This document shows positions 6,333-16,790 of a stretch of DNA of 51,015 nt, one piece after another. A program made the translations under genes and the position numbers. The stretch covers positions 1 to 51,015 of the IMG/VR virus record IMGVR_UViG_2721755676_000003. One strand, 5' to 3'. The notes under the pieces are model-generated. The model made no database searches. It was not told the DNA's origin and was given only the letters and a program-made list of their open reading frames with translations. This DNA is from a virus (lineage: Duplodnaviria; Heunggongvirae; Uroviricota; Caudoviricetes). Every line of letters begins with the position of its first letter. The stretch's first letter is position 1.

Positions 6333-7265
6333 TTAGTTAAGACTTTTAATCATATAGTTACGTCTAGAGATCTTTAATCTGTCATTATGAATTTCTGTAA
6401 CGCTAGCAACCATTGATACGTGTGAGCCTACTTTAAATCTTGACTGTATTTCACTAAGCATATCAATAGGATATGATGCCTTTATCTTTCCGTCAGCGTT
6501 CACCACTTCGAGTTTGCCATACATAGAGAGCAGTGATAGCTCACCTGTGATAATTTCATTCCACGGTTTGGATATTTCCGTGAAAGCTAACCTTTTTGTG
6601 AGCCTATCAATAGCTTCTTTGTTTAAGGAAACCGAACGCCTACCTTCACTTAACGGTCCGATCCAAGATAATTCTAGTGCTAAGCCATTTCGCTCGCACT
6701 CTTCTACAATGTTTTTAAGGTTATGCGTTGAATTCGACCCAATTTCAGCAAGTTTAGAAATAAATGAATCTTCGTCAGTGGCCTCTAGTACTGAGAAAAT
6801 TTCTTTTACAGCATGGCTAGAAACCGTATCAACCAGTTCACATGCCCCTGTGGAGAACGTTACGGCTAGCTTTGTTGAACCAGGCCTCAAATCAGCCAGT
6901 CTCATATCTAGAGACTGCTTTATCCCTACAGGTACCTTGCGTGAGTCTTTTCCTGATGAAATCCGATGTACGGCTTTTTGAACTAGGCCAGCAAGGTTTC
7001 CAGAAATGACAGAAAGTAATTCCAGAGGCATAGTTCCTGCGTCAACAAGAAAACCTTTGAACCTTAACTCCATGAAATCTTGGAGCGGGTGCTCTATCTC
7101 AGCAGATCTCAGTTCAGCCCTCAAATCGCTTAAATGGGAATCTAAGCTGCGCGCTAAAATTCTGTCGGCAAGAGTCATTTCATGAGCAGGGCCGATTTTG
7201 TTCATACGATCCTGAATGAACGCAATCCTTTGTTTTAATGGTATAAATTTTGGCTCTGTGCTCAT
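6333..7265 (-). CDS. Uncharacterised 310-aa protein, second gene of NTase-led operon
   Basis: 310-aa ORF; start ATG overlaps upstream gene stop (ATGA coupling); no motif I can assign; soluble. Confidence 0.6.
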   Translation of the reverse strand: MSTEPKFIPLKQRIAFIQDRMNKIGPAHEMTLADRILARSLDSHLSDLRAELRSAEIEHPLQDFMELRFKGFLVDAGTMPLELLSVISGNLAGLVQKAVHRISSGKDSRKVPVGIKQSLDMRLADLRPGSTKLAVTFSTGACELVDTVSSHAVKEIFSVLEATDEDSFISKLAEIGSNSTHNLKNIVEECERNGLALELSWIGPLSEGRRSVSLNKEAIDRLTKRLAFTEISKPWNEIITGELSLLSMYGKLEVVNADGKIKASYPIDMLSEIQSRFKVGSHVSMVASVTEIHNDRLKISRRNYMIKSLN

Positions 7266-7735
7266 ACTACAACCCTCGCTAAACCTTTTGGCGTTTCCTC
7301 TCTATCGTATCCAAAGCACCCTCGCCAATACATCCTGTCGTTTGTATAATCAGACTTTGGATCCCCTTTGAAAAGAGGTAAAAGGTCAATATGATAATTT
7401 AACTTTATAAAATCCCTATCCAAGAGACTTTCAACCTGAGGGGCAAACATTATAGGAATGGCATTTATAGCATCAAAATCCATAACAACTAGTATATCGA
7501 CATCATCGGGATCTAGTTTTTCAGTTGTAAATGAGCCGTCTACCCAAATTTCCAGAAAGCAATTAAATTGCTTATTAAGAACGCGCAAGTTGGTAATTAA
7601 CTGTATGAAATTACAGTATAGCATGGATCTACGAGTTGACTTAGGAAAACTATCAACACATATTTTTTTCAACTGGTTGTCATCAATATCATGAAAACCT
7701 GGTGTGAAGAGTGGCGGATAGCATTTCTTAGACAT
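7262..7735 (-). CDS. Small nucleotidyltransferase-fold protein (Pol-beta/minimal NTase signature)
   Basis: 157-aa ORF containing hG[GS]-x9-DxD-hhhh signature (IWVDGSFTTEKLDPDDVDILVVMDFD) typical of minimal nucleotidyltransferases. Confidence 0.5.
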   Translation of the reverse strand: MSKKCYPPLFTPGFHDIDDNQLKKICVDSFPKSTRRSMLYCNFIQLITNLRVLNKQFNCFLEIWVDGSFTTEKLDPDDVDILVVMDFDAINAIPIMFAPQVESLLDRDFIKLNYHIDLLPLFKGDPKSDYTNDRMYWRGCFGYDREETPKGLARVVV

Positions 7736-10875: not shown

Positions 10876-11712
10876 CTAATGATGATAAATACCATCGTCT
10901 AAAGGGGGACCTTCAGCAGTAACCCCCGTGATTCTACTTGGCGGTTCAAAGATGGCCTCACCAAATATCGCATCAAACTCTGCTTTGGTGACTGATAAGT
11001 ATTGCAAGATGAGCTCTAGCAGCTCTCTGTACGTATCACAATGCCATTCAATGTGAGGACATATTTGGGAGAGAACTCTGGTCTTAAAATCATCCAGATT
11101 TTTTGGGACTTCCAGCAAGTTACCAGTGTTTAATGCTTTCGACATAAACTTGTAATTGAGCATGGAGAGAACCATTACTGATACACCTTTCTCTTGCCTT
11201 AACTGATCGAACTTCTCTTGTGCTTGAAGGCTTAGCTTGGCGTATTCGCGATCTCGTTTTGAGTTGACTGGTTCGACGTACTGAAGCGGTTCGTCTGCAG
11301 CATCACCGATACGTGGACAAAAGTATCTATTCCACCAAGCCTCAAAATACCTTTTTTGGAACTCTAGGTATGTCATCCCAATAATATTGGTGTTTTGAGT
11401 GTACTGTTTAGCACCCTGCTGAAGCCCGTGCTTTGAAATAATAAATCCAATGTTAGCCCCGGTTTCATGCATTACCGTGGTGAACGAATGGACCACCGTC
11501 TGAGGTATAGAACTACCCCAGTTTTTGCATTCCACAATGTATCTGATTTTGTCCACGCTCCTAACATCTGTAGCTAGAACATCCACATTCACCGAGCCAC
11601 GCGGTGTTTCTAAATCGACCTCGACTTCTGCAAACAAGCCAACATTACGGAATATACGTTGGACCCCTGTCTGGAGGTCTTGCCAGTTTTCTGGTAATGG
11701 GTCATCGATCAC
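10876..11712 (-). CDS. Mrr-like restriction-endonuclease-fold protein (PD-(D/E)xK) with unknown C-terminal domain
   Basis: N-terminal VDVLATDVRSVDKIRYIVECKNW (D...ExK) typical of Mrr_cat nucleases; opposite strand to the replication genes. Confidence 0.5.
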   Translation of the reverse strand: MIDDPLPENWQDLQTGVQRIFRNVGLFAEVEVDLETPRGSVNVDVLATDVRSVDKIRYIVECKNWGSSIPQTVVHSFTTVMHETGANIGFIISKHGLQQGAKQYTQNTNIIGMTYLEFQKRYFEAWWNRYFCPRIGDAADEPLQYVEPVNSKRDREYAKLSLQAQEKFDQLRQEKGVSVMVLSMLNYKFMSKALNTGNLLEVPKNLDDFKTRVLSQICPHIEWHCDTYRELLELILQYLSVTKAEFDAIFGEAIFEPPSRITGVTAEGPPLDDGIYHH

Positions 11713-12046
11713 TTTTACTTTTCCTATGCACTATCCGCATGCTTTTAAGACTACTTGAAGACACAAACGTCGTCATCCACTAAAAGGTTCAAATTTGAGA
11801 TGATAGTTCGTTTCTGGTATGAAACGAACCGTTTGAAGAGCCGAGTGCTCTGCTAAGAGCCAGGAGTGGACGTTCTCAAAGCATTGCTTACATCGAGGAT
11901 GTATTAATCAACGGGGTGCAGGTCAATTGATCCATAAAAGGTTGAATGCTCTATACTAAGCACTAGTAAAAAACATTGCACAACATACACTTAAGGTTTA
12001 AATTGCTTATCACCAAAACATAAATTTAATCATAGGCTGATGGCGT

Positions 12047-13510
12047 ATGCTAAAGGTAATTAAAAAAGGTATTGGCTTCAATAAAACAGAAAAAAGATTG
12101 ATTGAATTAGCTAATAATGCCTTTATAGGTTTGTGGTCATATCCTAATGTTTATAGTGATGAGGGTTTTGCAAAAAATAAATCGGGTAAAGAAGTGTGTG
12201 ATTTATTAGTGGTTTTTGAAAATAATGTAATTTTGTTTTCTGATAAAGACATTAAGTTTAATGATGAAATTGATATCCATATTGCATGGAAAAGATGGTT
12301 TAGGAGAGCAGTAATCGAATCAGCGACTCAACTGCATGGAGCTGAAAAATTTCTAAAAGAGCAAAGTGACAGATTATTTCTTGATAAAGAGTGTAAGGAG
12401 AGGTTTCCAATAACAATTGACAATAAGATGCGCTTTTTTTTGATCGCAGTAACTAGCAATAGCGCAATTCCAGCTTTCAATTACTTTGGTCGTATCGCGG
12501 AAGGAAGTTCTGGAACTTTAGTAAATTGCTTTCCCTTTGGAATAAAGGAAAGTATGGAGCAACCTTTTACTGTTGGAGATTTGTATCCTGATAAGACATT
12601 TATCCATGTTTTAGATGAACTATCGTTAAAATTACTATTCTCTGAGCTGGATACAATTACTGACTTCGTTGACTATTTAAAAGAGAAAGAACGAGTCGTG
12701 AGGACAGGTTTTCTTGGATTAAGTCCTGGTGAGGATGACACACTGGGTGCCTACTTGATCGGGCATGGATTAATAGTAGATGAAAAGAAGGTGCCAAAAA
12801 ACTCGTTTGTTCGAATTGCAGAGCATGAATGGACTGAACTAAAAAAATCGCAATTATATGAATATTATACAGCTCTAAAAAAAGGTAGCTATTTTTGGGA
12901 TGAAACAGTACAACGTTTTTCCGATTCCATATTAAATGCAACTGTTGGTCTAGGTAAGGAAAATGACTTTCTTAGTCATGAGGAAACATTAAGACAATTA
13001 GCCTCTGAAAGCAGAGAATCAAGATATTATTTATCTAAATCATTCTTGGATAAATTCAAGCAAGTTCCTTCTGACAGAAGAAGCTCCAGAATCGTAGAGT
13101 CTTTAGATGAAAAAGGAAAGTTTTATATTTTTTTGTTTTTTCCGCGTGAAAAACATTTATCATATGAGGAATATAGAAACGAACGTTTTTCTTGCATTCA
13201 AATGTATGCGTTAACAGCTAAATATAAATACCCACAAATAAAAAAACTCATAGTCATTGCTACTGAAAGTAAAGACTCCGAAGGTCGTTCAGAGGATGTG
13301 GTATTTTGTCGATTTGATAACCCCCTTTCAAAAGGCGAACGTCTGTTTGTACAATCAGTGATGCACGAATATAGCATACTTACTGATTTCATTCCAAAAC
13401 CGAACAATAAATTAAATTTGTCACCGATAGTTAAAAGTGACAAGAAACCTGGAAGGAATGAACCTTGTTTTTGTGGATCTGGTATAAAATATAAAAAATG
13501 CCATGGATAG
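12047..13510 (+). CDS. SEC-C motif protein of unknown function (AT-rich cargo)
   Basis: 487-aa ORF ending in CFCGSGIKYKKCHG (SEC-C metal-binding motif); strongly AT-rich relative to phage backbone. Confidence 0.6.
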   Translation: MLKVIKKGIGFNKTEKRLIELANNAFIGLWSYPNVYSDEGFAKNKSGKEVCDLLVVFENNVILFSDKDIKFNDEIDIHIAWKRWFRRAVIESATQLHGAEKFLKEQSDRLFLDKECKERFPITIDNKMRFFLIAVTSNSAIPAFNYFGRIAEGSSGTLVNCFPFGIKESMEQPFTVGDLYPDKTFIHVLDELSLKLLFSELDTITDFVDYLKEKERVVRTGFLGLSPGEDDTLGAYLIGHGLIVDEKKVPKNSFVRIAEHEWTELKKSQLYEYYTALKKGSYFWDETVQRFSDSILNATVGLGKENDFLSHEETLRQLASESRESRYYLSKSFLDKFKQVPSDRRSSRIVESLDEKGKFYIFLFFPREKHLSYEEYRNERFSCIQMYALTAKYKYPQIKKLIVIATESKDSEGRSEDVVFCRFDNPLSKGERLFVQSVMHEYSILTDFIPKPNNKLNLSPIVKSDKKPGRNEPCFCGSGIKYKKCHG

Positions 13511-13955
13511 AAAATTAGCATAATTCTATTAACTCATTGCCATTATCTTGACAAAACTAAATGGAAACTTGTCATATTTATTTCTTGAAAATATTTAATT
13601 ACTGGCTGTAGCAACTTTAACTTAGTGCGGGCATAGCTATGAATCTCCGATTGTACTGGCAGGGGGCTACAACTTTAGATGACTCACTCCCATCTTCAAC
13701 AAGCTAGCTGGCTGCCTTGTGTTGCGAGGATTCGTAATGATGATGTCAGTTTTGTCCGCTTCTGGCAAGAGGCGGACGAGATGGCTAGGCTTAAGACCTG
13801 CTGAAAGCCAGGAGCTGACATCACTACAACTTTTAATGCTAACTTCACTTAAAATAATTTTGGAATTTGCACATATGGGTTATATAAGTAAATCATCGCA
13901 ATGAGTTCTATGCGATAATTTTATATTTAGTCCCCATCTTTATCGGATGGTTCAT

Positions 13956-14729
13956 CTAAGCTTTAACTCGCCTGACAAGAGTTTTACTGCAACCTATACT
14001 GAGAAGGTGGCGTCGAAGATTTTTATCAATATGACTATCCAACGTGGTAATTAAAAACACTATATCCTCAATAACCTTAACAACATCCGAGCTTGATATT
14101 TTAGTGAGGCTTACCTTTGGTCTGTCACAATTATGGATACAATCATGTCTCCTCTGAATTAGCGAAGTATATCTGTTAGTTAGCTTTTCTAACATAGATT
14201 TCCGTTTTTTTTCTTTATCCTCTTTGGATAACTTTTTGTAAGCTGTTGGAGTGGTTCCCATAAGACGATGCTTCGCTGACTTATTTATCAACCAGTCCTC
14301 CATCATCGGCTTTGTTAATATTTTGTTTTTTTCATCCATGATATGATTGAACAAATCCTTAATTTTATCGATTGAAAGTACGTTATCTTTTTCAATCAAG
14401 TCACGTGCTGCATTTCGCCATTTCCAATTCGAAGTTGTATTCTGAGCATTCACGATAGAATTTATAGGTAACTTCAATGACCTTATCTTTGGGCTTAATT
14501 TGACATTGCTGTCAATGCTTTTTGCAATTAGGATTTTTGATAACACATCTGCAAATGCATCACAAAAATATGCATCAAGTGCTCCAATCGCAATCATCCA
14601 AGAGGCTCTATATATATCATCCTTTAGAGTCGATATAGGTAATGAATCAGCATGAGCTATAAGGTCTTTTGCTCTATTAATATCCTGATTAAAATGACTT
14701 AACGCTGTGCTTGGCATATAACACCTCAA
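13956..14729 (-). CDS. HEPN-like protein (candidate abortive-infection RNase)
   Basis: 257-aa ORF with C-terminal R-x4-H motif (LIQRRHDCIHNCDRPK) in a helical, lysine-rich protein; AT-rich. Confidence 0.4.
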   Translation of the reverse strand: MRCYMPSTALSHFNQDINRAKDLIAHADSLPISTLKDDIYRASWMIAIGALDAYFCDAFADVLSKILIAKSIDSNVKLSPKIRSLKLPINSIVNAQNTTSNWKWRNAARDLIEKDNVLSIDKIKDLFNHIMDEKNKILTKPMMEDWLINKSAKHRLMGTTPTAYKKLSKEDKEKKRKSMLEKLTNRYTSLIQRRHDCIHNCDRPKVSLTKISSSDVVKVIEDIVFLITTLDSHIDKNLRRHLLSIGCSKTLVRRVKA

Positions 14730-15040
14730 AATAAATGATTTATATGGTTAATTGGAAATGCAAAACTTAAATTTTAGTTTATACCGTTTGTTGCCAGAAT
14801 ACGATATATTCACAGATTCTAGACCATTAACATTGGCACTACAGCCAGATAATGAGTTTGAACGTACACCGTAGTATACTTTCTGATCTGCCCACCCCAA
14901 AAAAATTAGTACTATCTGGATTACCACAGTCCGCTCTTGTCACCCAAATGTTATTTTACCTTAATGACATTAGATTTCATTTGGATCAGATTGCCGCAAC
15001 TATCAGTGTGCGGCAAGTAGCTGAAGCATTCATAGAGTAT

Positions 15041-16285
15041 TTATGGGTCAAGGAGGGATTTAAACTGAGATATGGGATAGTCATATCGTTCGTTATAGAA
15101 TGCCGCAAGCTTGCAGTATTCTGCTAGGTGAGCATCTGGCCTGTATGGGACAATCGCTCCTTCAATCGATAGCTCAATACTATTAGTGACAATCAACATC
15201 AAGGCATGATCTTTAGTAAATAGTTGTTCTGAAAGTAAACGATATTTATTTTTAGGCTCGGAAATAGTTTTGAATGATTCGAACGTGTCATTAATAAACT
15301 GAAGTGCCAATGCTCCAGGTCGTTTTCCTGTCAGTTGTTTTTTTAACGCCCGCTTAGATACTTTCTCAACCTCTTTCCAAATTTGTACATCACCTGCGGA
15401 TACGACCCGAATTCCCTTTAATCGATGCTCAGAGTCATGGCAGGCCACTAACGCTGCTGTGGAGCCATGGAGTGTTTGTGCTGCATTGAAGACTACATTC
15501 TCATCAGTTTTATCTCCCAATAATGGGCAAAATTCTTCAACAACAGAAAACTTTTCGCTGTGTATATCGTTGCCTTGAGTTTCAATCTCGTCTACTAGGC
15601 GAGCCATAAATTCTTTGAAGCTTTTATCGTTCTTAGGCACAGGTTCCGTCAAAATGATGGTCAAGATACTTGCGAATCCTTCCTTTGCAGTGAGAAGTCT
15701 GTCGAGCGAGATTTTTTCCAGCAAAGCACCAATCAAGCGATGCCCATCTGCAAGACTAACAGCAAAACCTTTATCACCTGCGAAGGATTTGCACTCAAGC
15801 TCAAATGGAGGAAGCCCTTGAGGTGGGTAGACTAGAAGGTCAAAGGTCTCCTCGCCTTTACTTTCCTCTGGCCATTCAATGGAGCACCCCCTGGAGATTA
15901 GTGTTTTGGCCATATATAACTCGTACTGCAAAGCGCGCATGTCGCTGGCAAGCTTGAACGCACCCTCGAAACGTTTTTTGAGTTCCCTGGGGCCTGGTTC
16001 ACCTCTTTCCACTGCTTCACACAGTTCCACCACTCGCTGCACAAATAACATTGTCTGGAACATTGTATTCCATTCGTATCCCGCATTTAATGCATACTGA
16101 TTTCTATCCCAAAACGTCAAACCGAATGCTACTGAGTTTTCTAATTCTTCCTGTCCACCACGTCCAGCAAATTGATTTGAAAGTAACTTTATGTCCTGAA
16201 CGACCTTCAGCCAAGGCTTTAAAGGGAAAAGCTTGACTAAACGGTTATAAATATCAGGGAAGCTAAGCATAATGAGGGGCATCAA
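15041..16285 (-). CDS. Hypothetical 414-aa protein with PD-(D/E)xK-like motif
   Basis: ETFDLLVYPPQGLPPFELECKSF (D...E-x-K) suggests a nuclease fold; otherwise unrecognised. Confidence 0.45.
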   Translation of the reverse strand: MMPLIMLSFPDIYNRLVKLFPLKPWLKVVQDIKLLSNQFAGRGGQEELENSVAFGLTFWDRNQYALNAGYEWNTMFQTMLFVQRVVELCEAVERGEPGPRELKKRFEGAFKLASDMRALQYELYMAKTLISRGCSIEWPEESKGEETFDLLVYPPQGLPPFELECKSFAGDKGFAVSLADGHRLIGALLEKISLDRLLTAKEGFASILTIILTEPVPKNDKSFKEFMARLVDEIETQGNDIHSEKFSVVEEFCPLLGDKTDENVVFNAAQTLHGSTAALVACHDSEHRLKGIRVVSAGDVQIWKEVEKVSKRALKKQLTGKRPGALALQFINDTFESFKTISEPKNKYRLLSEQLFTKDHALMLIVTNSIELSIEGAIVPYRPDAHLAEYCKLAAFYNERYDYPISQFKSLLDP

Positions 16286-16790
16286 ATATTATCTCCTTAG
16301 GTCAGCGCTTAAACAAAACTCCATCTTTAATACAACGTTTAATCTGCAAGAGCATACTACAGTGAATATCTGGGCGTCATATGCCCAATGCCCGAAAGCA
16401 TAATATGTATGCCTTTTAGCTGAAACTGGCCTTCACTCTGCAGACCTGAATACGTCACAAGCAAGGACCAGAGTAGTATCGGCATTGGTTGTGAAATCTT
16501 TAATTCACATGATGAGAGCATTATGCAACGGGTACTTTAACGATGATACCGAAGCGAGAACCTTTCTTGCAGGTTCTCGCTATAGGGCTTGGTAATAGCA
16601 TGTTGCTTGTCAGTCATGCCACATACCCAAACGTTCATTCTTGCTTCCGCTTTAAAACACTCAATCCACAGAAACTACAAGTCTTCACGCTGGAAGTAAC
16701 CTGTTGTTTGTTTGGGGGGCACATAATCTCAGTAAGTTACATTGTGATCTCATAAAACGTTGCAAAATCCGTTACATAAGTTTATAAAAG

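Follow-up and report, generated by a model that had tools for sequence, protein, structure and literature searches.

The window, by which we mean the whole 51,015-nucleotide (nt) stretch of DNA analysed here (IMG/VR virus record IMGVR_UViG_2721755676_000003), is a lambdoid prophage located beside dcp, and a gene on its minus strand, at positions 13956..14717, encodes a 253-amino-acid (aa) protein of the HEPN superfamily followed by a stop codon. We read this gene as encoding a stand-alone HEPN protein, carried as a single-gene cassette of low guanine-plus-cytosine (GC) content in a cargo island of the prophage and serving as an anti-phage RNase that aborts infection, a reading to which we assign a probability of roughly 0.55. 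The protein is already listed in RefSeq as a 'HEPN domain-containing protein' (WP_065304122.1), and the HEPN assignment itself is not new.

An initial annotation, made from the sequence, had described a Lys-rich, helical protein of 257 aa. The open reading frame (ORF) at 13956-14729 on the minus strand is present, the protein contains 11.9% lysine with an isoelectric point (pI) of 9.7, and its AlphaFold2 model is helical throughout; the start, however, is probably not the TTG at 14729. We prefer the ATG at 14717 because a GAGG Shine-Dalgarno sequence (14724..14727, minus strand), read from the sequence, lies 6 nt 5′ of it, because the homologues start there, an equivalent MPxTA opening all those that were aligned, and because RefSeq uses the same start. 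Residue numbers below follow the 253-aa form.

A divergent clade of the RiboL-PSP-HEPN family

Searches of Pfam, NCBIfam, PADLOC and PHROGs with the protein itself gave nothing informative, and its family became apparent from its relatives. A search of 5.8 billion proteins returned 693 of them, nearly all 250-260 aa long and many with a precomputed match to PF18735 (HEPN_RiboL-PSP). Of 40 relatives that we aligned, with identities to the query down to 38%, 32 match this profile at E ≤ 0.01. At 78% identity to the query, the relative P0005 reaches 38.4 bits, where the gathering threshold is 28.4 bits, and covers positions 5-190 of the 191-position profile, and P0013 (34.8 bits) and P0099 (32.8 bits) likewise cover nearly all of it. 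The comparison with Pfam that the initial annotation had proposed as a check on HEPN membership was therefore answered positively by the relatives, though the query has no Pfam match of its own, and by these profile comparisons the protein is a member of a tight, divergent clade of PF18735. When 1.84 billion cluster representatives (50% identity) were searched with a profile, 377 matched at E ≤ 0.001; none of the best 150 of these is longer than 304 aa and full-length relatives measure ~250-270 aa, which leaves no room for a fused domain, and the clade is, as judged from these counts and lengths, small, uniform and single-domain. Against the PADLOC models the 40 relatives gave scattered weak matches, with at most three members per model and a best E-value of 6e-4.

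The protein has the HEPN fold in its predicted structure. The AlphaFold2 model computed on the alignment is confident and all-helical (predicted local distance difference test, pLDDT, 85.6; predicted template modelling score, pTM, 0.83), with long helices at residues 3-25, 30-68, 165-198 and 209-240 and a helical insertion at residues 69-164. In the description of HEPN domains by Anantharaman et al. (2013, PMC3710099), they are up-down bundles of four helices in which an insertion often separates helices 2 and 3 and the active site is located where helix 3 ends. The model shows all of these features, including the location of R190-HDCI-H195 at the C-terminal end of helix 165-198 (helix 3), and places the protein within the superfamily. 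A conserved acidic residue in helix 2 is common beside the Rx4-6H motif of HEPN domains (PMC3710099), and D48 and D53 of the segment DAYFCDA (codons D48-A-Y-F-C-D53, 14559..14576, minus strand) are invariant and lie in helix 30-68 of the model. A structural match to HEPN, which had been named as a further check, is thus found in the bundle, the insertion between helices 2 and 3 and the position of the motif, whereas a Foldseek comparison of the model with the Protein Data Bank (PDB) gave nothing significant, which is a weakness of the case for the fold. A second weakness is that sequence and profile searches of the PDB returned chance-level matches only and revealed no relative with a solved structure.

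The insertion between core helices 2 and 3 (residues 69-164; 14226..14513, minus strand) contains the invariant residues P84, W98, W100, R101, A103, R105 and N124, and conservation across its residues 94-125 (0.69) is similar to that of the core helices (0.60-0.72). We speculate that the insertion, with W98, W100, R101, R105 and N124, may be a substrate-binding or regulatory element.

The motif from which the initial annotation started is present in the peptide LIQRRHDCIHNCDRPK (residues 186-201), with the codons R189-R190-H191-D192-C193-I194-H195 at 14133..14153 on the minus strand and R190-x4-H195 as the predicted catalytic pair. It had been placed at the C-terminal end, but residues 189-195 of 253 lie about three quarters along the protein, with a loop of 10 residues and a helix of 32 still to follow. 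As a cue the motif pointed to the right answer while being weak alone: of the 55 window ORFs that encode 150 aa or more, 29 contain R-x4-6-H and 16 contain R-x4-H, so that such a match by itself does not exceed chance. It is raised above that level by its conservation together with its structural position. RRHDCIH is invariant in all 40 aligned homologues, within the invariant block R189-R190-H191-D192-C193-I194-H195-x-C197-D198-R199-P200, and further invariant columns are R15, D34, R37, D48, D53, W98, W100, R101, R105, N124 and D218. Among 161 full-length relatives, 139 have exactly RRHDxIHxxDRP; intact variants (RRNDCIH, LRHDWIH, RRHDIAH) keep R190 and H195, and a few others appear to be fragments or to contain frameshifts. 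Since the intact variants retain these two residues, the conserved core is R-x4-H itself, and the conservation among homologues that had been asked of the motif is borne out.

Cysteines and histidines around the predicted catalytic helix are also conserved: C197 is found in every intact motif variant seen, C52 hardly varies, and H191 and C193 are retained in most cases. Going by sequence, these residues could serve metal binding, a disulfide or simple packing.

A single-gene cassette beside defence-type genes

The initial annotation had left open whether the HEPN protein acts alone or together with a 'downstream' gene for a 414-aa protein. This neighbour (15041-16285, minus strand) lies on the same strand at higher coordinates and is hence transcriptionally upstream, across a 323-bp gap. 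Acting alone is the option favoured by our comparisons. DNA homology to the copies in Tatumella (86%) and Symbiopectobacterium (82%) spans the ORF and, outside it, 21 nt on the upstream and 17 nt on the downstream side; because the shared DNA extends only ~20 nt beyond the ORF on each side, the HEPN gene moves alone. Among 80 genomic loci of the HEPN family, a single one has 414-like sequence nearby, in the form of a truncated, convergent fragment.

A two-gene system, in which the 414-aa protein as a PD-(D/E)xK-like nuclease and the HEPN RNase are co-transcribed, is by these data highly improbable. The two genes share a strand with no terminator-like site predicted in the gap between them, and they occur together on the 22 public contigs that carry the identical HEPN protein and also beside a 96% identical copy; however, these contigs share the same island, as do all five of the places shown, and because of this the 22 are not independent observations. 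The Symbiopectobacterium contig with a 414-like fragment (27% identity) beside its HEPN copy could likewise be taken in favour of a pair, but it is the sole exception to the 79 of 80 diverse loci that have no 414-like neighbour. Neither BLAST nor hidden Markov model (HMM) searches showed a HEPN gene beside the three homologues of the 414-aa protein that were compared, in Pectobacterium, Yersinia and Pseudomonas, and the DNA homology of the HEPN gene stops 21 nt before its start codon. On these grounds we rejected the 414-aa gene as a partner, and with it the suggested joint action. In the Symbiopectobacterium locus (L003:2633-3265, minus strand), the 3′ end of the HEPN gene directly adjoins a convergent 414-like gene of which the N-terminal half is present, and it looks as if the HEPN cassette was inserted into or beside a 414-like gene.

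The 414-aa family is rare (29 clusters, no Pfam match). Its members have an invariant D149 and E164-C-K166, and the model of the window protein resembles PD-(D/E)xK nucleases, namely CdiA-CT toxins, AF1548, BsmI, Can2 and HamA. Its homologues stand alone in islands, beside a PNP-TIR protein in Pectobacterium, a large ATPase in Yersinia and Hachiman genes in Pseudomonas, suggesting that the protein is probably a separate, uncharacterised defence nuclease.

Defence-type genes are also found beside relatives of the HEPN gene. The neighbours of copies that stand alone include SoFic/Fic proteins (four neighbours), type IV restriction enzymes, GmrSD_N, Mrr, BrxH and integrases, GmrSD_N/DUF262 neighbours occurring at only 2 of 37 such loci. 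The three closest complete relatives adjoin a GmrSD_N gene (Enterovibrio), an Abi_2 gene plus an OLD-like ATPase-TOPRIM gene (Halovibrio) and a DUF4145 gene (Tatumella).

Antitoxins and known HEPN systems

At 43 of the 80 loci, a conserved ORF of ~94 aa, which encodes an acidic protein (pI ~4.4), precedes the HEPN gene on the same strand and is separated from it by 11-96 nt; the HEPN protein that it accompanies is basic (pI ~9). These paired copies form a single clade in a neighbour-joining tree (without support values) and come from Planctomycetota genomes; all other copies, including the gammaproteobacterial group of the window, are solo. The acidic protein, which has no Pfam or PHROG match, is a candidate new antitoxin or regulator. 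Its recurrent motifs are EIYxELFPE and EEIVDLWNVVFP (loci L006-L077, for example L068:5677-5958 and L077:5678-5959). The surroundings of the Planctomycetota pairs are unrelated to each other and consist mostly of housekeeping genes, and the lack of relation among them fits a mobile, toxin-antitoxin-like pair.

This arrangement raises the alternative that the window gene encodes the toxin of an addiction (toxin-antitoxin) module whose main effect is to stabilise the prophage, with a small protein or RNA antitoxin having been overlooked. Besides the Planctomycetota pairs and their scattering among unrelated genes, it is favoured by the related HEPN systems AbiD/F and AbiV, which use RNA antitoxins (PMC13064643, PMC12373285). 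We nevertheless consider it rather unlikely. A profile of the acidic partner found no match in the six-frame translation of the whole window, and a protein antitoxin of the Planctomycetota type was therefore rejected for the window copy. Upstream of the gene there is a single ORF (14748-14927, 59 aa), and relatives do not share it. In AbiD/F the upstream region with the non-coding RNA antitoxin shows stronger conservation than the gene (PMC13064643, PMC12373285), whereas the flanks of the window gene are not conserved with respect to copies that are 82-86% identical in DNA. Between 10800 and 16800, Rfam gave no match at E ≤ 1, including the abiF motif, and no tandem repeats were found; with no Rfam match, no repeats and no conserved flanks, an RNA antitoxin was rejected as well. 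A promoter scan returned fewer promoter-like sites than in shuffled sequence, and no terminator was predicted in the intergenic gaps.

RiboL-PSP-HEPN has been described as a bacterial family with a distant relationship to AbiD/AbiF (Anantharaman et al. 2013, PMC3710099). Close homologues of the query match its whole profile above the gathering score and the Rx4-6H motif is present, but the subclade of the query is tight and has its own 13-residue signature, QRRHDCIHNCDRP, and neither of the contexts published for the family, an L-PSP endoRNase fused to the domain and a shared operon with ParB, was found: the protein has no fusion and no ParB-type gene lies beside the window copy. With AbiD, AbiD1 and AbiF (Abi_2, PF07751) it shares the organization as a single HEPN protein of similar size, carriage on mobile elements or prophages and a predicted RNase toxicity. 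The designation 'AbiD/F-like' given by the initial annotation holds for this distant relationship but not for family membership, as none of the 40 relatives matches Abi_2 at E ≤ 0.01, although the profile itself works, since a true Abi_2 protein beside one of the relatives (locus L005) scores 1.8e-49. AbiD/F furthermore need a conserved upstream non-coding RNA antitoxin, while the window gene has no Rfam match and its upstream homology ends 21 nt before the ATG.

HepT toxins of the HepT/MNT systems (SO_3166, 5YEP; 7AE2/8XDJ) are ~130 aa long, lack the 96-residue insertion and are ~9-12% identical to the query. They are AMPylated by an adjacent MNT nucleotidyltransferase, in place of which the window gene has the SEC-C and 414-aa proteins as neighbours; the sole nucleotidyltransferase-like gene of the window (DUF6932) lies ~6 kb away in another operon. 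ApeA, DARNA (PD-T7-3) and HEC-08 are each encoded by one gene, carry a HEPN RNase effector, reside in mobile elements or defence islands and have no antitoxin, and an infection cue sets them to cut tRNA; for ApeA and DARNA, the cues are nucleic acids derived from infection and the sites cut are tRNA anticodon loops. They would be the closest functional analogy, one of function only and with no sequence relationship. DARNA has a 300-aa C-terminal sensor of single-stranded DNA and HEC-08 has zinc-ribbon domains, where the query has only its internal helical insertion, and identity with DARNA/PD-T7-3 was rejected given its length of 456 aa, its different architecture and the absence of a PADLOC match linking the two. 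From the Planctomycetota pairs, finally, the window copy differs in having no ~94-aa upstream ORF and in belonging to a separate, solo clade. By these comparisons the protein lies outside Abi_2, HEPN-MNT and every PADLOC system.

Proposed function and prophage setting

Because the protein is a genuine HEPN member and stands alone in a cluster of imported, defence-type genes within a prophage, we read it as a suicide nuclease, most likely an ordinary single-gene anti-phage one and not a new kind of system. From established HEPN biology, RNase activity and an abortive-infection phenotype are plausible. The protein would work as a homodimer, in which the R-x4-H motifs of both subunits together make up one composite, metal-independent endoRNase site. 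In the lysogen it would remain inactive, possibly restrained by the conserved insertion that separates helices 2 and 3, until phage infection sets it to cleave RNA of the host or of the phage, which might be tRNA, rRNA or mRNA. Cleavage would stop translation and abort the infection, to the benefit of both prophage and host.

Several observations weigh against this interpretation. The query stays below the PF18735 threshold, with no Pfam match even at E ≤ 1, and matches no protein model of the known and candidate anti-phage systems in PADLOC-DB v2.0.0 at E ≤ 1. The searchable literature holds no demonstrated function for any PF18735 member and no experiment on a member of the family. Only three relatives were found in 2.9 million viral contigs, and megablast and tblastn searches of phage and plasmid collections gave no match to the family. 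In Planctomycetota the gene lies mostly amid housekeeping genes.

The last of these points would also suit a role outside defence, in which the protein either is a non-catalytic HEPN domain that binds nucleotides or proteins or serves dimerisation, like those of sacsin or AbiA, or is an enzyme for a specific RNA-processing step that rides the prophage. The HEPN domain of AbiA has been reported to be inactive (PMC13064643), and the family is unusually uniform, with ~40% identity across phyla, lengths of 250-260 aa, no fusions and only 377 representatives. We nonetheless regard a non-defence role as quite improbable: the R, the H and the acidic residues of helix 2 are kept in intact full-length relatives, which is the signature of active HEPN RNases (PMC3710099), and the distribution is patchy (one of 5426 E. 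coli genomes), the GC content low, the movement cassette-like and the closest relatives flanked by defence genes.

Returning to the suicide nuclease, an extension that seems to us possible, though short of probable, is that the clade constitutes an uncharacterised single-gene anti-phage HEPN system, whose W98-x-W100-R101...R105...N124 insertion would sense an infection cue or select the RNA target, and that the Planctomycetota sister clade is a new two-gene HEPN toxin-antitoxin family with a hitherto undescribed, small acidic protein as antitoxin. An anti-phage function would add one more single-protein HEPN effector to the prophage-borne anti-phage genes, and it would be the first function for a PF18735 member, without overturning current understanding. 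The solo clade and its sister clade with an acidic partner offer a natural experiment on how a HEPN toxin is restrained with and without an antitoxin.

The prophage carries genes for an integrase, RecET, a repressor, O/P replication proteins, DinI, DUF1367, RusA, an antiterminator, lysis proteins and terminase. Its cargo island (10876..16400) is 5.5 kb long, has 38.5% GC compared with 49.6% for the window, and lies between replication gene P and the DinI/DUF1367/RusA genes. It consists of four genes on mixed strands: an Mrr_cat endonuclease (10876-11712, minus strand; Pfam and annotation), a 487-aa SEC-C protein (12047-13510, plus strand; PHROG 18195, function unknown), the HEPN gene and the 414-aa PD-(D/E)xK-like gene, the nature of the last being predicted from its fold. 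A 96% identical copy of the Mrr gene lies in a P2-like prophage, where tail-fibre and tail-sheath genes flank it, and a homologue of the SEC-C gene (74% nucleotide identity) adjoins psu and delta of a P4-like element; both locations are reported antiviral-gene hotspots, of P2 and P4 respectively. As these two genes recur there, the same cargo cassettes circulate among lambdoid, P2 and P4 elements, and each of the four cassettes of the island is independent of the others. The island, placed between the replication and nin-type genes of the prophage, brings together four unrelated nuclease-type cassettes, two of which are found again in those other elements, and makes up a compact candidate set for defence screening.

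The DinI/DUF1367 flank of the prophage occurs in one of 5426 complete E. coli genomes (NZ_CP015912.1), as does the island. With the flank confined to that genome, the P-DinI junction could not be shown to be a variable hotspot of E. coli prophages. A 414-aa protein of identical sequence carries the label Enterobacter hormaechei, and the prophage may have been acquired recently from, or be more typical of, another enterobacterial genus.

A second low-GC patch lies beside the prophage repressor and contains a two-gene operon (6333-7735, minus strand), in which the gene for a 157-aa DUF6932 protein overlaps by 4 nt that for a 310-aa protein without a Pfam match. The stretch WVDGSF...DPDDVDILVV of the DUF6932 protein looks like a minimal nucleotidyltransferase, and the operon may be another toxin-antitoxin or defence cargo.
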